34,565 nt of DNA from a virus. Its lineage: Duplodnaviria; Heunggongvirae; Uroviricota; Caudoviricetes. Shown one piece after another: positions 3,522 through 30,354 of this stretch. The position numbers and the translations under genes are program-made. The stretch lies in IMG/VR virus record IMGVR_UViG_2537562189_000007. One strand, given 5' to 3'. The notes under the pieces are model-generated. The model searched no databases. It saw only the letters and a program-made list of their open reading frames with translations, and was not told the DNA's origin. Numbering within the stretch: position 1 is the first letter of the stretch; the number at the start of each line of letters is the position of its first letter.

Positions 3522-4271
3522 TTAACCCGCTGCACCATCCGTGACGGTAATTTCCGCCACTGCCGCAAACTCACCATTGCCGGTAACCACAGGGATCTGC
3601 GCTTTACCTGCCGCAACACCTTTCACGGTGATCGTGTTCCCTTTCACGGTAATGGTGGCGAAATTCTGATTCGCCGACGTGGCACGGAAGGTTTTATCCG
3701 TCGCCCCTTCCGGCTGAACAGCCACGGTCAGGGTGATATTCTGACCTTTTGCCACATTGCCCGTTGGTGGCGTCACGGTAATACCGGTGACCGGTGTGAT
3801 GTCCCCCTGATCTTCCGCCAGCGACGGACGACCGATATTGGTGATTTTTACCGTACGGGTGATCACCTCTTTGGCGGTCACCGCTTTACCAATGGCGCTC
3901 ACCCAGCCACGGAACACATCCACCGTACCGTTCGGGAAGCGAATTTTGTAGGCCCGGCTCTCACTGCTGTCAAACCAGGCAATCAAATCGCGCTGCCCTT
4001 TCTCACCCGGCTTCCAGGCCAGCGTAAAACTGGTGTCACCGGCAGATTTCTGCCCCTGCCCGGTGGATACCCAGTCAGCATCCTCATCATCCAGATAGTT
4101 ATCATCGTAGGATTCTGCCGTCATCTCGCCGGGGGTCAGATCCTTCACCTTCGCCAGTCGCTGCCAGTCATCGTCTGACAACGGGTTTGCATAAGCATCA
4201 CCAGTGCCGGTGTACACCCACAGTGTGGTACCGGAACCTTTCACCGGCTCAAGAGGATTTGGTGTTGCCAT
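3522..4271 (-). CDS. V: Major tail protein V with C-terminal Ig-like domain
   Basis: 249 aa; N-terminal two-thirds track lambda gpV ([46 protein letters not shown]); C-terminal ~90 aa ([20 protein letters not shown]...[27 protein letters not shown]) has the Big_2/Ig-like pattern. Confidence 0.9.
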
Positions 4272-4278
4272 ATCGTCC

Positions 4279-4677
4279 TCACATCTCGTAGGTAATTTTC
4301 CACAGGAGATCTGCCGATCCCCACATCATAAACTCATCATCCCGGCGGTAGTCATACCCCTGAAGATTCATTTTCAGCAGTAATGCACTGAGCCCGGGAA
4401 CTGCCTCCAGCGCAGGAAGAATTTTTTCTTCCATCCACATATCCAGTGCCGAGTCCGGTTCTTTTGCCCTGAGAAAAACCTCAATATGCAGTGTCGCCTC
4501 CCAGGTTCCCTCATCAACGAACTCGTCAGCAGCAGACGCATCTGTCAGGTAAACAGCAACAGCAGGCAGTTCCTGTTCATCAATAAAAACCGGGCGACCG
4601 TCAAACCAGCTCACCCTCTCAGAAATATTTTCTTTCAGGGCAGACAGAACTGCCGCCCGTATTTCACGGTGTCTCAT
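4279..4677 (-). CDS. U: Tail terminator protein U
   Basis: 132 aa with lambda gpU-like motifs ([37 protein letters not shown]); position between Z and V. Confidence 0.85.
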
Positions 4678-4689
4678 ACACCCTCCCAG

Positions 4690-5319
4690 TCATTTTCTTT
4701 TCAGCACCAGGCGTAACTGATGCGTCATGGCTTTCATCATCTGCGCCGGTAATTTTTCCCGGTACATCCGGTCCCGTTCACGTTCAAAGGTTTCTGCCAG
4801 CGGTCCGGCAGTCGGAATCTTCACCACTTCGATCGGCAGACGGTGGCGTTTCGGCCTCCCTTTGCTGTCAGCGCCGGTGGACGATGATGCCCACGGCATA
4901 CGCTGCATCACATGCCAGCGTCCGTTAGCCAGCCGGGTGATAAAGGCATCCGGGATCCGTCTTTTCCCCACAATCAGCACGCTGCCACCGCCTTTCGTGA
5001 CCGAACGCTCGCCTTTCTTTCGTCGCTTTCTGCGGGAAAGCAGCACGCTGGCCGTCCCCAGTTTTATGGCGGGCAGATTACCGGTGTTGATGATGACCTT
5101 CGCATAAACCCTGTCTGCGCTGGCCCGTTGCAGGCGGATACGCTCACGGATGAGACGGCGCGGAACCGCCAGCTCCCTGGCAACCGAAGAGGCCGTTTTC
5201 GCGATGATGGACTCCGCCACACGGTTAAGTGTCGTGGCGGCAGCCCGGGGAACGGCACGGCGGTCAATTGCATCCAGATTTTTCATGGCCTGCGCCAGAC
5301 CTTTTATTGCCATACTCAT
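4690..5319 (-). CDS. Z: Tail completion protein Z
   Basis: 209-aa basic protein at the lambda Z position between the head-tail joining gene and U; N-terminal region resembles gpZ-family proteins. Confidence 0.7.
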   Translation of the reverse strand: MSMAIKGLAQAMKNLDAIDRRAVPRAAATTLNRVAESIIAKTASSVARELAVPRRLIRERIRLQRASADRVYAKVIINTGNLPAIKLGTASVLLSRRKRRKKGERSVTKGGGSVLIVGKRRIPDAFITRLANGRWHVMQRMPWASSSTGADSKGRPKRHRLPIEVVKIPTAGPLAETFERERDRMYREKLPAQMMKAMTHQLRLVLKRK

Positions 5320-5597
5320 TCCTGTTCGACAAAAATCCGGGGTTTACCGTTGTACGTGTCATAACGGGTCACCGTCAGTGTGCGCCCCGCAAACACAACA
5401 ACATCATGACGGGCCGGACGGTACCGGGCTGAAAACACCACCAGTGACAACTGGCTGCCCGAAAGCGCCCCCATCTCCGCGGACTCTTCCTCCGGCATCA
5501 CGTCGTACACGACGCCGTTAATCTCCGCCTGTTTGCCCATCATCCGAACGGTCGCCACGTCCATCCGGCAACACATTCGCGTAAACAGATCAGACAT
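5316..5597 (-). CDS. Head-tail joining protein (FII-position)
   Basis: 93-aa ORF translationally coupled between the DUF2190-like gene and Z; assigned by synteny, not by clear lambda FII similarity. Confidence 0.4.
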   Translation of the reverse strand: MSDLFTRMCCRMDVATVRMMGKQAEINGVVYDVMPEEESAEMGALSGSQLSLVVFSARYRPARHDVVVFAGRTLTVTRYDTYNGKPRIFVEQE

Positions 5598-15194: not shown

Positions 15195-17171
15195 TCATGC
15201 CGCGGCATCCGCGTTGTTCACTTCCACCTTCACACTGTCAATCAGCAACGTATATGTCGCCGCCTTTGATATGTCTGTCAGTTGCAGTTTGTCCGCCGCC
15301 CCTGATGCCGGAGATTTCACCAGTGTGAACGGTGTACCCCGTTTCTCATCCAGTACCGGCGTCACCTGAATGCTGTTGTTTCCGGCAAACTCAAAAGCCA
15401 GTGTGTGCCATCCGTTATCAAAGACCCCGAACGTATCCAGCTTCGCATTCTGCTTCTTGTGGTACATCGCGTTCAGGTTCGTCGCATCCGTCTGCAGGAA
15501 GAAGGACATCAGCATGTCGTTGCCTTCCTCTGACAGCGTCACTCCCTCCGGCAGGGACGACAACTGCCAGTAAATACCCAGGGCAAACTGATTCGGCACC
15601 AGTGCGCCCGGCACCTTAAACCGCACGCTCACACGTCCACCTTTCTTCAGCAACTCTGCTCCCTGCCCGGCGGCATCATGCTCCAGAAACCAGATGTGGC
15701 TTTCCGGTTTGTTCAGTTGCAGGGCCTTACCACCGGTGGCACCCTCATCACTGACCACAGCCTCAGCGATGTTTTTATTAACACTGTCTCCGCTCGCCGG
15801 TTTGTGATAATAGCGCCAGCCCTGTGATGCCAGGTCTTCACCGGACGCCAGCAGACTCATCAGGGTTCGGTTACTGACCGGGGCTTCCGGCTCTCTCTCC
15901 GGGCCTTCACCGGAAGGTCCGGTGGGCTTCACCGTATCAGGCTGTTTTCCGGTAATGAATTCAGCGGTTCTCCCGGCATGCACCAGAATCGCCGTTGCCA
16001 GACGGTCGGAAATAATCCCACGGCGAGCCCATGAACTGAAATGGCTGGCCCTGTCCACAGATGTCCAGGTCTTCTGGTCATTACGCCACTTTGAACCGTA
16101 ATAACCGACGGCTTCCAGGTCCGGGTCTTCTGCCGGGTTATTGGTCTGCACATTCGCACCATTCTCATCCGTCATTAACGGTACAAAGAAAATGTTCTGC
16201 GACTCCTTCCCCTTATACCCTCCGTATACTGATGCATACCCTTCCGCATGACGCTGCTTCCAGAAATACGTTGTGTCCCCGCAAATCCACGGTACCGCTG
16301 ATGCGCTGCCTCCTGTGCTCTGTGATGCCTGACCGGCAAGCTCCGTTCTGAACTGATTCACCATCGCACTAAACAGCCCCGGATGCTGCGCATGCGTCCC
16401 CACTGCCGCATCACCTTCTCCCTGCATCCACACCACCGCAAGCAGACGGTTTTTCGGGTTCTTCGCCAGTGCGGCTTTAGTCCGGCTCACCAAATCCTGA
16501 TACAGCGGCTTACCCACACCCCAGCGCAGTGAATTTTCCGATGCACCGGCTGATTCGCTGTATGTGCCGTCTGCACCCGTTGTGAATGCCGAAGCACCAC
16601 GGCAGCACGGAACCAGCAGAATGCCCGCATTCGCCGGTATAAACGGCAGCAGTTTTTTGGCGATATGCAGCCCCTGCCCCACGGTTCCGTACTGCCCCTT
16701 TGACAGGTCCGCTTTCGGATGGTTAAGACGGCTCATGTCCTGCACATCATGCAGACAATGGTCCGCCGGAATAATGTCGTTATACTTACAGGCGGCACCG
16801 CCCGGTGTCACCGTACTGCGGCGCGCCAGCTGCTTAATACGCGGGTCCGGACGGTCATATGTCTCCGGCAGCGGAAGGCCTTCACCATACGACATGCCGT
16901 TTGACTGCCCTGCCAGAACCACAACAAAGTAATACTCCGGGTCGCTGGTGGCGCTGATTACTGTGCCTTCTCCATCCGACGGCTTCACCACCACAGGTGT
17001 GCTCACATCACCTTCTGCGACAATCGCCTGAATAAGTGCTGCGCCATCATCCGTATACGAAGAAAACGGCCCGCCGTATGGCTGCCATCCTTCACGAATT
17101 TTTTGAGCAAGTGTATCAGCAAGGTCTGACGGCGACGCCGCCCTGACCACGTCATAGTGTTTAAATGCCAT
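15195..17171 (-). CDS. nanS: Prophage sialate O-acetylesterase (NanS-p-like)
   Basis: 658 aa; N-terminal DUF1737-like segment, SASA esterase core with GQSN motif (VVVLAGQSNGMSYGEG), C-terminal carbohydrate-binding-like region; GGGAGG RBS; location between tRNAs and holin as in EHEC lambdoid prophages. Confidence 0.8.
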   Translation of the reverse strand: MAFKHYDVVRAASPSDLADTLAQKIREGWQPYGGPFSSYTDDGAALIQAIVAEGDVSTPVVVKPSDGEGTVISATSDPEYYFVVVLAGQSNGMSYGEGLPLPETYDRPDPRIKQLARRSTVTPGGAACKYNDIIPADHCLHDVQDMSRLNHPKADLSKGQYGTVGQGLHIAKKLLPFIPANAGILLVPCCRGASAFTTGADGTYSESAGASENSLRWGVGKPLYQDLVSRTKAALAKNPKNRLLAVVWMQGEGDAAVGTHAQHPGLFSAMVNQFRTELAGQASQSTGGSASAVPWICGDTTYFWKQRHAEGYASVYGGYKGKESQNIFFVPLMTDENGANVQTNNPAEDPDLEAVGYYGSKWRNDQKTWTSVDRASHFSSWARRGIISDRLATAILVHAGRTAEFITGKQPDTVKPTGPSGEGPEREPEAPVSNRTLMSLLASGEDLASQGWRYYHKPASGDSVNKNIAEAVVSDEGATGGKALQLNKPESHIWFLEHDAAGQGAELLKKGGRVSVRFKVPGALVPNQFALGIYWQLSSLPEGVTLSEEGNDMLMSFFLQTDATNLNAMYHKKQNAKLDTFGVFDNGWHTLAFEFAGNNSIQVTPVLDEKRGTPFTLVKSPASGAADKLQLTDISKAATYTLLIDSVKVEVNNADAAA

Positions 17172-17367
17172 GAATCCTCCCGGCCGGGATAATGTTGTGA
17201 GTCAGATAAGGGGCGGGCTGAAGTCCGGAAGTTACAGGACAATGACAGAAGGAAGACTACAGCCCGCAATACGAAAAAGGCCGCGCAGTTGCGCAGAGTG
17301 ATTACTGTCGGGTATTATTCGCCAGCTGAAAAATTGATTACTTCACGTTTTGTTGTTTATTCCTTGC

Positions 17368-17397
17368 TGCCCGCGTCTCCCGGCGCGGGCTTTTTTT
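17368..17397 (+). terminator. Intrinsic terminator (plus strand)
   Basis: GCCCGCGtctcccggCGCGGGC followed by TTTTTTT. Confidence 0.55.
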
Positions 17398-17427
17398 GCA
17401 TGTAAAAAGGCTCCTGCGATGAGGAGC
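17397..17427 (-). terminator. Intrinsic terminator (minus strand)
   Basis: Minus strand AGGCTCCTcatcgcAGGAGCCT (8-bp stem) followed by TTTTT; back-to-back with the plus-strand terminator. Confidence 0.5.
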
Positions 17428-17456
17428 CTGGATATATGCCTAATCTCTGTATACAG

Positions 17457-17650
17457 CATGATGCCGGGTGCCTCCCGGTGAATTCTGCAATGACCAGACA
17501 GAATCCGCAACTTGCCTATACAATACGCAACCAAACATCTGTCATTATGCCCCTCCGCTCAGGGGGATTCATCATGCAGGATTTTTTTAACAAATGCTCA
17601 GCCAGACAGGCAACCGTCAACTGACTGAATTGTGAGTGATTTAACATTTC
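17457..17650. repeat. Tandem direct repeat, copy 1 (period ~269 bp)
   Basis: Shares with copy 2 the blocks catg(a/g)tgccgggtgcctcccggtga, atgcccctccgc(t/a)cagggggattca(t/c)catgc and ttttaacaaat(g/a)ctcag...gacaggcaac(c/t)gtcaactgactgaattgtgag; the middle ~70 bp is diverged. Confidence 0.6.
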
Positions 17651-17674
17651 ACTGCCCGGTGCCTTCCCCTCATT

Positions 17675-17697
17675 AAAAAGCCCCTCCGGAGAGGGGC
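17675..17697 (-). terminator. Intrinsic terminator between the two repeat copies
   Basis: Palindrome GCCCCTCcggaGAGGGGC preceded on the plus strand by AAAAA, so the minus strand has hairpin plus TTTTT. Confidence 0.55.
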
Positions 17698-17725
17698 TAA
17701 AGCCGCGTATCTGTATCATCATGCG

Positions 17726-17916
17726 CATGGTGCCGGGTGCCTCCCGGTGAGTTCAGTATCAGCACCTGAACCCGCACCAGATAAGGGATATAACCAACCA
17801 CCTGTCGCTGATATGCCCCTCCGCACAGGGGGATTCACCATGCCAGTTTCTTTTAACAAATACTCAGTCTGACAGGCAACTGTCAACTGACTGAATTGTG
17901 AGACATTTAAAATTTT
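17726..17916. repeat. Tandem direct repeat, copy 2
   Basis: See copy 1; begins 269 bp after it with the same conserved blocks. Confidence 0.6.
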
Positions 17917-18005
17917 CGGGGCATGACTGATACCCGGCTAACCACCTGATGCTTCCTTTTTTAGCAACAAACAGGTCCACCAAAGTGAGACAGAAAAAAT
18001 AAGTG

Positions 18006-18082
18006 TGGCGCGTTGTACTGGATTCGAACCAGTGACCGATTGCTTAGAAGGCAATTGCTCTGTCCGGCTGAGCTAACAACGC
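18006..18082 (-). tRNA. argO: tRNA-Arg (anticodon UCU)
   Basis: Minus strand folds as a 77-nt cloverleaf GCGTTGT/ACAACGC acceptor, anticodon loop CUUCUAA, T-loop GGTTCGAATCC, encoded CCA. Confidence 0.8.
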
Positions 18083-18095
18083 TGAATACCGATAA

Positions 18096-18172
18096 TGGAC
18101 CGCCATCGAGGACTCGAACCCCGCGCAACCAGCTTCGAAGGCTGACGCTCTATCCCGATGAGCTAATGGCGG
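18096..18172 (-). tRNA. argN: tRNA-Arg (anticodon UCG)
   Basis: 77-nt cloverleaf with acceptor CCGCCAT/ATGGCGG, anticodon loop CUUCGAA, T-loop GGTTCGAGTCC, encoded CCA. Gene symbol by synteny with the ileZ-argN-argO cluster. Confidence 0.7.
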
Positions 18173-18181
18173 TATGTGATA

Positions 18182-18257
18182 TGGTGGCCCTTGCTGGATT
18201 TGAACCAGCGACCTGGCGATTATGAGTCGCTCGCTCTCACCACTGAGCTAAAGGGCC
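18182..18257 (-). tRNA. ileZ: tRNA with CAU anticodon, ileX-like (tRNA-Ile2; Met not excluded)
   Basis: 76-nt cloverleaf GGCCCTT...AAGGGCC-A-CCA, anticodon loop CUCAUAA; overall close to E. coli ileX as recalled. Confidence 0.65.
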
Positions 18258-18297
18258 GAGTGCAGGATAATAACGGTACGTAACTAATCCTGCAATA

Positions 18298-22186: not shown

Positions 22187-22519
22187 TTACCTCCAGATAC
22201 GCTGCTGGAATGTGCGGGACGGACGCGGTGGGCGTTCGGAATAAGGGAGCCTGACGGAGATTATCCAGTGACGACGATCGAAGCTGAGATCTTTCTGAAA
22301 CTCGTAACCACGTCTGCGGTAGCACTGGATCAGCCATTCGGCCTGTTCTTCAGTGCATGGGTCATGCTGGAACCAGTCAGATTTGAATGCATGAGAACGC
22401 CGCCCGTGCCTGCTGGCAGGGGCGGCGGAGTTATCCGAATTGTGTAATTTGGTATCTTGCGCCATCGGTTGTCTCTGCTGGCGCAGCAGGTGCCAGTTGT
22501 TCAGGCTGGCGTGCGGCAA
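22187..22519 (-). CDS. Hypothetical nin-region protein
   Basis: 110-aa ORF abutting the DUF968 gene; no confident motif. Confidence 0.35.
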   Translation of the reverse strand: MPHASLNNWHLLRQQRQPMAQDTKLHNSDNSAAPASRHGRRSHAFKSDWFQHDPCTEEQAEWLIQCYRRRGYEFQKDLSFDRRHWIISVRLPYSERPPRPSRTFQQRIWR

Positions 22520-22537
22520 TATTGTCTCTGATTTCTG

Positions 22538-22565
22538 TTGTCGTCAACAGGCAGCGTGCTATCAT
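22538..22565 (+). promoter_or_regulatory. Candidate sigma70 promoter for the parDE moron
   Basis: TTGTCG - 16 nt - TATCAT about 35 nt upstream of the ParD ATG. Confidence 0.3.
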
Positions 22566-22600
22566 CGAATAGTGTTCTATCCTACTCCGTGAGGTTTACC

Positions 22601-22858
22601 ATGCGTACAACCCAACAATTCAGCATTACATTAACTAACGAGATGGCTGACATGGTGCGCGCCCGTGTGGCTTCCGGTGCCTATGCTTCAGAAAGCGAGG
22701 TCATTCGTGAAGGGCTTCGCGCACTGAATGAGCGCGATAAAGCAATCGAAGCGTGGTTAACGCATTCAGCCGCCCCCTCTCTTGATTCTATCCGCGAAAA
22801 CCCAAACAACGGACGCTCCATTTCACAGGTTCGCGCCGCGATTCGATCCGGGAAGTAA
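22601..22858 (+). CDS. parD: ParD-family antitoxin (RHH)
   Basis: 85 aa from ATG 22601 (GAGG 6 nt upstream); FSITLTNEMADMVRARVASGAYASESEVIREGLRAL matches the ParD/COG3609 pattern. Confidence 0.75.
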   Translation: MRTTQQFSITLTNEMADMVRARVASGAYASESEVIREGLRALNERDKAIEAWLTHSAAPSLDSIRENPNNGRSISQVRAAIRSGK

Positions 22859-22863
22859 TCTGC

Positions 22864-23163
22864 ATGACATATGAAGTCATCATTACTCCTGAGGCCGAAC
22901 AACAAATAATCAACCTGCACAGATATATAACGGAGAAAGCAGGGAACATCATTGCTGACAATTATGCCAATGCGCTTCTTGATTATCTTGATGGGTTTTC
23001 TACATTCCCGCATCGGGGCAATAAACGCGATGATATTCGCCAGGGGATGCGGGTAACTCATTTCCGCCACAGAACGATTATTGCTTTTGCCGTTGATGGC
23101 AGAAAAGTCTTTATTGTCGGTATCTATCATGGTGGGCAAAGTTATGAAACCGATTTCTTATAA
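22864..23163 (+). CDS. parE: ParE/RelE-family toxin
   Basis: 99 aa, starts 5 nt after ParD stop; ParE-like sequence (VIITPEAEQQIINLHRYI...FIVGIYHGGQ). Confidence 0.75.
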   Translation: MTYEVIITPEAEQQIINLHRYITEKAGNIIADNYANALLDYLDGFSTFPHRGNKRDDIRQGMRVTHFRHRTIIAFAVDGRKVFIVGIYHGGQSYETDFL

Positions 23164-23244
23164 ACTTTTACCCACATCATTCCGGTGTTAGAATAAACCG
23201 TCTGCCCCTCTCTTACTGCGGATTCGTAGGCTATATAAATCAAA

Positions 23245-23278
23245 GATCCCGGCTCATGTTTGTGGCGGGATCTTTTTT
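23245..23278 (+). terminator. Intrinsic terminator after parE
   Basis: GATCCCG - 14-nt loop - CGGGATC followed by TTTTTT. Confidence 0.55.
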
Positions 23279-23285
23279 CGGCGAT

Positions 23286-23369
23286 TTATCCCCAGCGGCA
23301 AATCGAATACACCACCAGCGCCACCGCCATTGCAATACCAACATTTGAGAAGGCCTCAGGCCAGCTCAT
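23286..23369 (-). CDS. Small hydrophobic peptide (27 aa)
   Basis: ATG overlaps the DUF551 stop (caATGAgc) with AAGGAGG 7 nt upstream; MSWPEAFSNVGIAMAVALVVYSICRWG. Confidence 0.25.
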   Translation of the reverse strand: MSWPEAFSNVGIAMAVALVVYSICRWG

Positions 23370-23719
23370 TGGCGCACCTCCTTCGGCGGTTCTGGTAGCG
23401 GCATCCAGTGTGTGGCTTCACACACGATAGGCGCACCGAAACACTGCGCATACTGGAAGTCACCCGTATTATCCAGGTTAAAACCTGTAAACTGTTCACC
23501 CGTGCTGGACACAAACAGTAGTACATCAACACCAACTGGCGGCATTCGCTCACTACAGCTTATCCAACCATCCGGAGTTACCGGAGAATTGCCAGCCTTG
23601 CGCATGGCAATCTCCATGATTTCAACCATATCCCTTGGTGGAATTTTACAATGCTGACCAGTATGCTTCTGCTGCCTGGCATATTCGAGGATGTGCTCCA
23701 GCTTGATACGATTAATCAT
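23366..23719 (-). CDS. DUF551-family phage protein
   Basis: 117 aa ending ...CEATHWMPLPEPP, the characteristic DUF551 C-terminal pattern. Confidence 0.55.
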   Translation of the reverse strand: MINRIKLEHILEYARQQKHTGQHCKIPPRDMVEIMEIAMRKAGNSPVTPDGWISCSERMPPVGVDVLLFVSSTGEQFTGFNLDNTGDFQYAQCFGAPIVCEATHWMPLPEPPKEVRQ

Positions 23720-28134: not shown

Positions 28135-28506
28135 ATGGAAACAAAAGAGATTCGGCGTTTACGCCTCAAAGAGTGGTTCAAAGACAGGACTTTGCCGCCT
28201 AAAGAGAAAAGTTACTTATCTCAGTTAATGAGCGGTAAAGCTACGTTTGGCGAAAAGGCAGCTAGACGTATTGAACAAACATATGGGATGCCTGGGGGAT
28301 ATCTTGATATTGAACCAGAAGACATAACAGAGTCTCCATCATCAAGATCTATAGCATTAACCCCTAACCAATTAGAATTGCTACAAATATTTAGTGCTTT
28401 CCCTGATAATGAGCAGCAGGAGATCATAAAAGAACTAAAAAACAAAAAAGAGGCTATGGAAGATCTTGTCGCACGTTGGTTGGCACGACAAGGTCGCCGA
28501 GCCTGA
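28135..28506 (+). CDS. HTH repressor-like protein, paralog of the downstream PaaR2-like regulator
   Basis: 123 aa; N-terminal HTH; C-terminal 45 aa (LTPNQLELLQIFSAFPDNEQQEIIKELKNKKEAMEDLVARWLA) closely parallels the C-terminus of the next gene. Confidence 0.6.
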   Translation: METKEIRRLRLKEWFKDRTLPPKEKSYLSQLMSGKATFGEKAARRIEQTYGMPGGYLDIEPEDITESPSSRSIALTPNQLELLQIFSAFPDNEQQEIIKELKNKKEAMEDLVARWLARQGRRA

Positions 28507-28525
28507 CGGGATATATAGATATCAG

Positions 28526-28987
28526 ATGGGCGTACTCGAAATTAGTGCTCTTAGAATTAAGATGCTTCTATTGGCAAAAGGCTGGAGCCAAGCAGGACTT
28601 GCGCGCAGAATTGGTATTGCTCAACAATCCGTGCAACGGTGGGTTTGTGGTATCTCAAGCCCTACGGCAGCTAATCTAGATAAACTATCTGAAGTAACGG
28701 GACTTCCTCAGTATTGGTTTTTCTTACCATTAAATGAAGAAAAAAAAGACAGGGCACAGGATATATTAAAAATAACCCCTAATCAAAAGGAACTACTTCA
28801 AACATTTGAGGCATTTCCAGAGGAAGATCAACAGCAAATGCTTAAAGATATGAAGGAGAAAAAAGAAGCAATGGATCGTATAGTTGCAAGGTGGTTAGCA
28901 GCACAACAAAAAGTCAACCAAGCAGAATACCAGCACTTACAAAACGAGGTTCACCATGAACACAGCCCTTTCACCGATGGTTTCTGA
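28526..28987 (+). CDS. paaR2: PaaR2-like HTH transcriptional regulator
   Basis: Internal ATG 28526 (MGVLEISALRIKMLLLAKGWSQAGLARRIGIAQQSVQRWV...); directly precedes the antitoxin-toxin pair, as in three-component paaR-paaA-parE systems. Confidence 0.65.
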   Translation: MGVLEISALRIKMLLLAKGWSQAGLARRIGIAQQSVQRWVCGISSPTAANLDKLSEVTGLPQYWFFLPLNEEKKDRAQDILKITPNQKELLQTFEAFPEEDQQQMLKDMKEKKEAMDRIVARWLAAQQKVNQAEYQHLQNEVHHEHSPFTDGF

Positions 28988-29147
28988 ATTTGAAACTGTC
29001 GAGCAAGAAAACAGTTACAACGAATGGCTGCGTGCGAAAGTAGCAGCGAGCCTTGCAGATCCGCGCCCAGCAATTCCCCATGACGAGGTTGAGCGTAGAA
29101 TGGCAGAACGCTTTGCTAAAATGCGCAAGGAACGGAGTGAGCAGTAA
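28956..29147 (+). CDS. paaA2: PaaA2-like antitoxin
   Basis: 63 aa (MNTALSPMVSEFETVEQENSYNEWLRAKVAASLADPRPAIPHDEVERRMAERFAKMRKERSEQ), GAGG RBS; stop overlaps toxin start (TAAATG). Confidence 0.7.
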   Translation: MNTALSPMVSEFETVEQENSYNEWLRAKVAASLADPRPAIPHDEVERRMAERFAKMRKERSEQ

Positions 29148-29435
29148 ATGTTACCCGTGTTATGGCTTGAAAGCGCAGATACCGACTTGGATGATATAAC
29201 CAGCTATATTGCACGCTTTGACATAGATGCGGCAGAACGTTTATGGAAACGCTTAAGGACTTGCGTTCAGCCATTATCTGAGCATCCGTATTTATACCCG
29301 CCAAGTGACAGAGTGCCAGGTTTGCGTGAAATTGTAGCTCACCCCAATTACATTATTCTGTACCGAGTGACAATTTCAGGCATTGAAATTGTTAACGTAG
29401 TTCACGCCCGCCGACAGTTCCCTGTAACACCTTAA
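29148..29435 (+). CDS. parE2: ParE-family toxin (ParE2-like)
   Basis: 95 aa with ParE/RelE-like features (LPVLWLESADTDLDDITSYIARFD...IVNVVHARR). Confidence 0.75.
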   Translation: MLPVLWLESADTDLDDITSYIARFDIDAAERLWKRLRTCVQPLSEHPYLYPPSDRVPGLREIVAHPNYIILYRVTISGIEIVNVVHARRQFPVTP

Positions 29436-29865: not shown

Positions 29866-30354
29866 TTAGCACCAGTAAAAACAGGTTGCCACTGGTTAAT
29901 TTACCCTGAAAAGTCAGGGCATAACACGAAAGCGCACGGCGAAGTTCGTATATCTGTACGGCGTCGTTAAATTTTCTTCGACCGTGCACTTCCGGTTGTG
30001 GCAATCCGCGAAATGGCGCGGCGGTAAGTATGGCTGGGGTTTCCTCCATTGCTCCAGAAAATGCACCGGGTTGTCAGGTTGACCATACGCTTAAGTGACA
30101 GCCCCGCCACAATACCCATGTGTAGTCTTTGGTGGCATCAGTTCTACTCCGTGACTGCTCTGCCACCCTTTTTAAAGTGAATTTTGTGATGCGGTGAATG
30201 CGGCTAAGCGCACGCGGAACAGTTAAAACCGTAAAGTGGTCTTTTACTGGCGTAACAGACATCAACTAACAATCCGGCGTTAATTGTTAACTGGTTAACG
30301 TCACCTGGAGGCACCAGGCACCACATCACAAAATTCATTGTTGAGGACGCGATA

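Follow-up and report, generated by a model that had tools for sequence, protein, structure and literature searches.

Our results reveal, in a 34,565-nucleotide stretch of Caudoviricetes DNA from a lambda-like E. coli prophage (hereafter, the window), two adjacent genes that likely form a canonical two-gene type II ParD/ParE toxin-antitoxin operon, organized as a self-contained cassette with a mechanism that can be drawn by analogy from better-studied ParDE systems. The components of this cassette, along with its flanking genes and a second toxin-antitoxin module of the same window, are as follows.

22187-22465, minus strand: 92-aa gene of unassigned function (phrog_1212), left border of the slot that the cassette occupies
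about 22516-23285, parD and parE on the plus strand: whole parDE cassette
22516-22550, minus strand: left edge of the cassette, with an isrK-type divergent promoter remnant and the palindrome CTGTTG-N4-CAACAG
22538-22565, plus strand: candidate sigma-70 promoter of parDE, from a consensus scan and conservation among copies
22569-22585, plus strand: candidate ParD operator, an imperfect palindrome
22591-22594, plus strand: putative parD ribosome-binding site, GAGG, 5' of the ATG
22601-22858, plus strand: parD, 85-aa ribbon-helix-helix (RHH) antitoxin, with its ATG at 22601
22864-23163, plus strand: parE, 99-aa ParE-type toxin
23242-23278, plus strand: intrinsic-terminator-like hairpin and T run predicted by folding, right edge of the cassette
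23286-23369, minus strand: flanking 27-codon hydrophobic ORF, MSWPEAFSNVGIAMAVALVVYSICRWG, read off the sequence
23366-23719, minus strand: DUF551 gene, flanking the cassette
28466-29435, plus strand: PaaR2-PaaA2-ParE2 three-component module, identified by PDB matches to PaaA2 and ParE2, with a helix-turn-helix (HTH) regulator upstream

The two genes of the cassette are co-oriented, with the antitoxin gene first and a 5-nt gap between them, whereas all of their neighbors (DUF551, the 92-aa gene, and the DUF968, RusA, and antiterminator genes, which the 92-aa gene precedes) lie on the opposite strand. This agrees with an earlier sequence-only reading of the window, which had proposed a ParD-like RHH antitoxin and a ParE toxin encoded on the plus strand against a minus-strand early operon, and both ORFs passed the cut-offs of their families. 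That reading gave the module as 22538-23280; the strand of the genes stands, but parD does not begin at 22538, where the -35 hexamer and a longer, TTG-initiated ORF start. The short hydrophobic ORF to the right of the cassette is outside the toxin-antitoxin module proper; its ATG overlaps the stop codon of the DUF551 gene (ATGA), and an O157:H7 prophage has an annotated, homologous CDS of 34 aa at the equivalent position.

For the antitoxin, the curated cut-offs of both Pfam PF03693 (32.1 bits, cut-off 21) and NCBIfam TIGR02606 (53.8 bits, cut-off 46.2) were exceeded, and PDB sequence searches aligned its N-terminal half with the RHH domains of ParD1, ParD2, ParD3, and PrpA. The best fold matches of its AlphaFold model (pLDDT 89) were likewise ParD RHH domains, including those of ParD1 (3kxe), ParD2 (7b22), M. 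tuberculosis ParD1 (8c24), and PrpA, over which the model reached a TM(target) of 0.75-0.83 at an rmsd of 1.4-3.8 Å. Profiles, PDB sequence, and predicted fold agree in placing an RHH DNA-binding domain at the N terminus. Further, the gene lies directly upstream of, and co-oriented with, parE, an arrangement that recurs in R751 and in at least 11 of 17 distant loci encoding relatives of the toxin, which span Enterobacterales, Burkholderiales, Xanthomonadales, Desulfovibrio, and Beijerinckiaceae; the pairing of parD with parE is conserved from Enterobacterales to Burkholderiales and Desulfovibrio. When eight diverse ParD sequences were aligned, all 28 invariant positions fell within the first 53 residues, while the C-terminal half co-varied with the toxin clade.

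The cassette appears to be equipped with expression signals of its own. Upstream of parD, a promoter-like site comprises a -35 hexamer, TTGTCG (22538-22543), a 16-nt spacer, and a -10 hexamer, TATCAT (22560-22565), with an extended -10 TG at 22557-22558 (TGcTATCAT). Its match of 9/12 positions is not significant alone, as four such sites occur in 2 kb, compared with 1.9 expected from shuffled sequence. Support for the promoter comes instead from its conservation: the Salmonella and Yersinia similis copies show hardly any change from the -35 hexamer through the start codon, and the -10 variants found among the E. coli, Salmonella, and Yersinia copies (TATCAT, TATTAT, and TAAAAT) all retain T1, A2, and T6. 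At the opposite end, folding predicts a hairpin with the arms AAAGAUCCCG (23242-23251) and CGGGAUCUUU (23267-23276), followed by U residues, which a simple terminator scanner missed because of its long loop and which is kept in the Stx2a phage ArgO145. Both the candidate promoter, TTGTCG-16-TATCAT, and the terminator, placed at 23245..23278, that the sequence-only reading had ascribed to the module could thus be located, the former with cross-genus conservation and the latter by folding.

Downstream of the -10 hexamer and ahead of the ribosome-binding site lies a 17-bp palindrome, ATAGTGTTCTATCCTAC (ATAGTGT-TCT-ATCCTAC, 22569-22585), which, judging from its distribution among related loci, is probably the operator recognized by ParD. 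Specifically, the form GTAGGAT-N3-ATCCTAC was found 295-363 nt upstream of parE with 0-2 mismatches in 12 of the 17 distant loci, and with 3 mismatches in 3 more, and it stands 20-50 nt upstream of parD wherever the parD start is known. In R751, the palindrome ATAGGATTGAATCCTAT (ATAGGAT-TGA-ATCCTAT) occupies the corresponding position, just upstream of the start of the antitoxin gene kluA. At up to 2 mismatches, the 34.5-kb window contains a single match, compared with 0.12 expected by chance, and this site is invariant among the enterobacterial copies, although its left half is degenerate in this clade and agrees with the R751 half-site at 5 of 7 positions. A perfect palindrome further upstream, CTGTTG-N4-CAACAG (22535-22550), was also considered for this role and was dropped, because it has no counterpart in the distant homologues, which share the downstream GTAGGAT-N3-ATCCTAC instead; it is better explained by the parDE and isrK promoters, whose -35 hexamers stand back-to-back.

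The cassette occupies a slot in which different genes are found in related prophages. When compared with an O157:H7 prophage carrying hokD in this slot, homology on the left flank ends at 22515/6 and resumes at ~23280, just past the terminator. The slot holds hokD in O157:H7 lambdoid prophages and rem-hokD-relE-relB in K-12 Qin; lambdoid prophages differ in which module, parDE, hokD, or relBE-hokD, they have at this one site of the nin region. The cassette itself (22518-23369) recurs at 96.5% identity in ArgO145 in a different context, with an anti-repressor gene on one side and an HNH-region gene on the other, and homology with both ArgO145 and the orphan parD copies described below starts at 22518. 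Variable presence at one site with sharp junctions, together with the other context in ArgO145, fits the proposal of the sequence-only reading that the module is an opposite-strand moron; its promoter-like site and hairpin may allow expression from the repressed prophage.

The previous surroundings of the cassette can be traced through its left edge. ArgO145-like phages, Salmonella, and Yersinia have the cassette in divergent orientation to an isrK-C4-antirepressor unit. On the side of that unit, a TTGACG-18-TATATT promoter has its -35 hexamer back-to-back with the one of parDE; 7 nt beyond this promoter, in the Salmonella, Yersinia, and Stx2a-phage copies, begins a full Rfam match to isrK, and the C4 RNA comes next. 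Only a weakened remnant of the isrK promoter is present in the window (minus strand; -35 TTGACG at 22547-22542, 18-nt spacer, -10 AATATT at 22523-22518), which accounts for the perfect palindrome noted above. These patterns suggest that the cassette recombined into the nin region from an isrK-C4-antirepressor immunity-region context. The motif GGGGT.C.AATCCCG, found upstream of parD in the Salmonella, Yersinia, and Stx2a-phage copies, was also considered as a tRNA 3' remnant or att site; ARAGORN found no tRNA, and Rfam assigned the motif to the isrK sRNA, followed by the C4 RNA. As for Shiga toxin, the stx position of the window lacks ORFs of ≥85 aa; this leaves no StxA-sized ORF, while a StxB-sized ORF would fall just above the 85-aa cut-off.

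The toxin scored 40.7 bits against Pfam PF05016 (cut-off 23). An AlphaFold2 model, built from 19 homologues and searched against the PDB with Foldseek, had a pLDDT of 87 and displayed two N-terminal helices (residues 9-26 and 28-46) on a three-stranded antiparallel sheet (62-67, 71-78, and 81-89), which is the fold of the RelE/ParE superfamily. Its best 23 PDB fold matches were of the ParE type without exception (TM 0.72-0.83), and they include Mesorhizobium ParE3, PfiT, M. tuberculosis ParE1/ParE2, PrpT, Vibrio ParE2, Pseudomonas ParE, Caulobacter ParE1, and O157 ParE2.

A mode of action can be proposed from RK2 ParDE, Caulobacter ParDE1, Vibrio cholerae ParDE2, and M. tuberculosis ParDE1, which are experimentally characterized, gyrase-poisoning ParE systems. 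By this analogy, ParD dimers would bind the palindrome through their RHH domain and repress the operon, and the C-terminal half of ParD would wrap and neutralize ParE, a role to which its co-variation with the toxin clade and its faster evolution once parE is lost lend indirect support. In the lysogen, expression would depend on the promoter of the module itself, because parDE is antisense to the early-right operon. Were the labile ParD no longer replenished, for example because the prophage is lost or because an infecting phage shuts off host transcription, ParE would be freed, poison DNA gyrase, and stop growth, and the outcome would be to favor retention of the prophage or to abort competing infections.

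Gyrase is not certain to be the target of this ParE, because PrpT and PfiT, which match its model equally well, reportedly act otherwise than by classic gyrase poisoning. One potential alternative is that the ParE-fold toxin is not mainly a gyrase poison and that the pair tunes the life cycle of its element (induction, replication, or virion production), as is said to be the case for PfiT/PfiA of the Pseudomonas prophage Pf4 and PrpT/PrpA of Pseudoalteromonas plasmids. We consider this quite unlikely, although several observations speak for it: PfiT (9w3a) and PrpT (7ycs) are among the top fold matches, with TM values (0.80-0.83) on par with those of classic ParE proteins; PrpT is also matched by the family profile; and the cassette adjoins the isrK-C4-antirepressor immunity region in other phages and lies inside the early operon here. 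Modulation of Pf4 propagation by PfiAT, as described in PMC13048266, counts in the same direction. However, the best sequence and profile matches of the toxin are Mesorhizobium ParE3 and M. tuberculosis ParE1, and its homologues are common on plasmids and chromosomes without any phage context, which suggests a generic toxin-antitoxin rather than a phage-specific function.

The evolutionary record bears on whether the cassette is a maintained operon. The toxin family comprises 2,318 representatives at E ≤ 1e-3 in a library clustered at 50% identity. Among 5,426 complete E. coli genomes, parD is present in 365 and parE in 328, every copy being chromosomal. Relative to the Salmonella copy, dN/dS was 0.07 for parD and 0.10 for parE, values that point to purifying selection on both genes. 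It is very unlikely, in our estimation, that parDE is a passively carried and possibly silent relic, with neither a lysogen transcript of its own nor a selective role. Such a relic would accord with a promoter match that does not by itself rise above chance, and parE has indeed decayed in some relatives, through a frameshift in Yersinia similis and by outright deletion in Stx2a phages; against it stand the intact ORFs with dN/dS of about 0.1, the retention of promoter, operator-like palindrome, and ribosome-binding site between genera, and the fact that, among the E. coli copies listed, all are annotated as intact CDSs.

The name of the toxin family leaves room for a different activity, as neither PF05016 nor the RefSeq/PGAP name "RelE/ParE family" distinguishes RelE from ParE. 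That the toxin acts as a ribosome-dependent mRNA endonuclease of the RelE type, a reading to which these shared labels and the genuine relBE in the same slot of K-12 Qin lend some color, is scarcely credible and is rejected on the fold and profile rankings, since the RelE-like RNases YoeB, HigB2, YafQ, and RelK reached a TM of only 0.42-0.64 to the toxin model and ranked below the ParE structures, the family profile retrieved ParE-type chains only from the PDB and no RelE-type chain even at E ≤ 10, and the partner antitoxin is a ParD-family RHH protein rather than RelB. Placement of the toxin in the ParE branch of the RelE/ParE superfamily, nearer to ParE than to the RelE, YoeB, HigB, or YafQ RNases, is thus supported by the family profile and the modeled fold, even though its identity to structurally solved ParE proteins is only about 13-24%. 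Taken with the curated cut-offs, the restriction of PDB sequence and fold matches to ParD and ParE, the pairing across phyla, and the signature of purifying selection, this bears out the ParD/ParE identity originally assigned to the two genes.

A recent paper has drawn attention to an "orphan ParD" in EHEC phages (PMC12502783), and the cassette offers a source for it. Sequence comparison indicates that the orphan parD of O157:H7-type Stx2a phages derives from this cassette by deletion of parE. Specifically, the orphan copy retains the promoter, the operator candidate, and the first five codons of parE, and its RHH half is identical in amino-acid sequence. After the loss of parE, the C-terminal half of parD evolves faster (dN/dS 0.28 versus 0.11). 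A full parDE was seen in 5 of 42 orphan-bearing genomes, compared with 6% of the other genomes, a difference that is not significant (Fisher p = 0.11). A broader scenario, which we regard as speculative and on balance unlikely, would have the nin slot act as a hotspot of toxin-antitoxin exchange and the cassette take part in conflict between prophages, with orphan ParD possibly serving as an anti-addiction or anti-exclusion factor and antisense transcription possibly releasing ParE. If this were true, orphan ParD could neutralize the ParE, or repress the parDE, of resident prophages such as the present one, and antisense early transcription through parDE upon induction could reduce the supply of ParD, thereby freeing ParE. 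The proposed origin makes experiments on cross-neutralization between co-resident Shiga-toxin-type prophages easy to design.

Beyond the cassette, the window encodes a second ParE-family toxin, as the sequence-only reading had anticipated. PDB matches confirmed PaaA2 (28956-29147; 3zbe, E = 9e-35) and ParE2 (29148-29435; 5cw7_B, E = 6e-56) as parts of a PaaR2-PaaA2-ParE2 module. Like the cassette, this module, known from O157:H7, is prophage-borne and has a ParE-fold toxin (TM about 0.79 to the toxin of the cassette), and both reside on the same element. Unlike the cassette, it has three components, including a separate HTH regulator, and its antitoxin, PaaA2, is annotated as RelB-family rather than ParD-family and, at 63 aa, is too short for a DNA-binding domain and a toxin-binding domain together. 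The cassette does not belong to the PaaR-PaaA-ParE type, in that it has two genes only, an antitoxin with its own RHH domain, and a toxin in which BLASTP detected no similarity to ParE2. Cross-neutralization between the two ParE systems is predicted to be unlikely, because the toxins lack BLASTP similarity and the antitoxins are of different types.

The pair is already annotated as ParDE by standard pipelines, and its identification here confirms an earlier reading and is no discovery. RefSeq lists the proteins as a ParD family antitoxin (WP_001260978.1) and a RelE/ParE family toxin (WP_000220597.1) and annotates the pair in about 328 complete E. coli genomes, GenBank records it as toxin-antitoxin components in ArgO145, and PHROGs classes both members as "moron" (phrog_6494 for the antitoxin and phrog_5232 for the toxin). 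A catalogued anti-phage defense system was considered and set aside, as the PADLOC-DB 2.0 models matched neither ParD/ParE nor PaaA2/ParE2 at E ≤ 0.01; a defense role is hence without support from this database. A literature search returned no experimental study of this parDE module. The characterized ParDE of Yersinia pYV was considered as the same system but differs in its published description, its ParD being of 80 aa with an 8-nt gene overlap (PMC10203498), in contrast to the 85 aa and 5-nt gap found here. Only three points are new, and their value is modest: a candidate ParD operator, a slot at which toxin-antitoxin modules are exchanged, and a source for orphan ParD. Of these, an operator candidate shared across phyla lends itself directly to a DNA-binding experiment for this ParD subfamily.

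Among known systems, the closest named relative that we found is KluA/KluB of the IncP-1beta plasmid R751 and its relatives, annotated as a ParD antitoxin and a RelE-ParE toxin, in which KluB is 47% identical to the ParE of the cassette over 96 residues. The two systems share their gene order, a highly conserved RHH half of the antitoxin, and a palindrome upstream of the antitoxin gene, while kluAB differs in being plasmid-borne and in the longer C terminus of KluA. The kluAB promoter region of R751 presumably also contains KorA/KorB-type operators. No experimental paper on kluAB was retrieved in our literature search. The best PDB match by both sequence and fold is ParD3/ParE3 of Mesorhizobium opportunistum (5ceg, 6x0a), whose ParE3 was found at E = 0.008 with the single sequence and at 1e-5 with the profile, with a TM of 0.80-0.83; it likewise pairs an RHH antitoxin with a ParE toxin, but it is chromosomal, alphaproteobacterial, and non-phage, and its toxin is only about 22-24% identical. 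The relBE-hokD of Qin and the hokD of O157:H7 prophages resemble parDE in being toxin-antitoxin modules of the same slot (from the 92-aa gene/DUF968 to the upstream early genes) and in sharing its left junction. They belong to other families (the RelE mRNase and type I Hok/Sok) and follow the strand of the early operon, whereas parDE lies on the opposite strand. Finally, RK2 ParDE, Caulobacter ParDE1, Vibrio cholerae ParDE2, and M. tuberculosis ParDE1 share with the cassette the toxin fold, the gene order, and the RHH antitoxin, with toxins that are 13-21% identical to the ParE of the cassette in structural alignments.

Beyond the complete toxin-antitoxin cassette of the window, our results revealed an 86-87% identical "orphan" parD in 53 Stx2a phage records and in 42 complete E. 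coli genomes, most of the latter O157:H7. The orphan retains the promoter, the palindrome that is the candidate ParD operator, parD itself and the five opening codons of parE (MAYEV). Because homology breaks immediately thereafter, it is a parE-deletion derivative of the window cassette. Its ribbon-helix-helix (RHH) half, codons 1-47, shows zero amino-acid changes at a dS of 0.34, and dN/dS in the C-terminal half is 0.28. Orphan and full parDE occurred together in five genomes, a co-occurrence that was not significant (p = 0.11). Orphan ParD and orphan HigA genes have previously been noted in EHEC phages, and were left unexplained (PMC12502783). Within the window-type ParDE subfamily, a case of toxin decay is found in Yersinia similis (locus L017, 4001-4284), where parE is frameshifted after approximately 24 codons and parD is intact.

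Comparison loci outside the window
L002 (Stx2a phage LC727840), 3021-3360: orphan parD, counterpart of window 22518-22877
L004 (K-12 Qin prophage), 4133-5354: rem-hokD-relE-relB, in the nin-region slot that precedes the 92-aa gene and DUF968
L003 (O157:H7 prophage), 2234-2739: hokD, in the same slot
L023 (plasmid R751), 2110-2235: kluA/kluB promoter region, containing a ParD-type palindrome

The nin-region slot thus repeatedly receives toxin-antitoxin modules, from three different families: parDE in the window, rem-hokD-relE-relB in the Qin prophage and hokD in prophages of O157.

Features of the window
17172-18260: stx position, between three tRNA genes (18009-18257) and a nanS-p-like esterase gene (15195-17171)
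17398-17606 and 17668-17872, minus strand: STnc100 sRNA, present twice in tandem in place of stx
22518-22547, minus strand: the cassette's left edge, where a remnant of the promoter for isrK sRNA survives
23167-23194, plus strand: extended -10 promoter-like site (TTTACC-16-TGtTAGAAT), directly past the parE stop codon
23286-23369, minus strand: hydrophobic 27-codon ORF (MSWPEAFSNVGIAMAVALVVYSICRWG)
30117-30168, plus strand: antisense RNA DicF, matched over its full length by Rfam (61 bits)

On the left, the isrK remnant now points toward the 92-aa gene, DUF968, rusA and the antiterminator gene, and its activity is doubtful, given that its -10 (AATATT) has lost the first T. An intact version drives isrK-C4-antirepressor in Salmonella, Yersinia and Stx2a phages (loci L006, 3572-3684; L017; L002). 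On the right, the promoter-like site lies some 50 nt ahead of the cassette terminator, and the two, as read from sequence, could delimit an sRNA of about 75 nt (23167-23278, plus strand). This putative unit has no Rfam match and is conserved only in the copy in the Stx2a phage ArgO145, which is near-identical and hence uninformative. The 27-codon ORF, whose ATG overlaps the stop codon of the DUF551 gene (ATGA), has no PHROG match; it travels with the cassette in ArgO145, and an annotated 34-aa homologue occupies the equivalent place beside hokD in the O157:H7 prophage. DicF lies downstream of the second ParE-family module, PaaR2-PaaA2-ParE2.

The usual stx position holds no ORF of at least 85 aa, hence none of StxA size, and the window is thus an stx-negative relative of Stx phages; the nearest complete genome carries stx2b there.

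Finally, the kluA/kluB promoter region of R751 contains TTTAGCTAAAC, which we take to be a KorA operator, and TTTAGCCGCTAAA, presumably a KorB operator. If so, kluAB, a ParDE homologue, would fall under the IncP global regulon.
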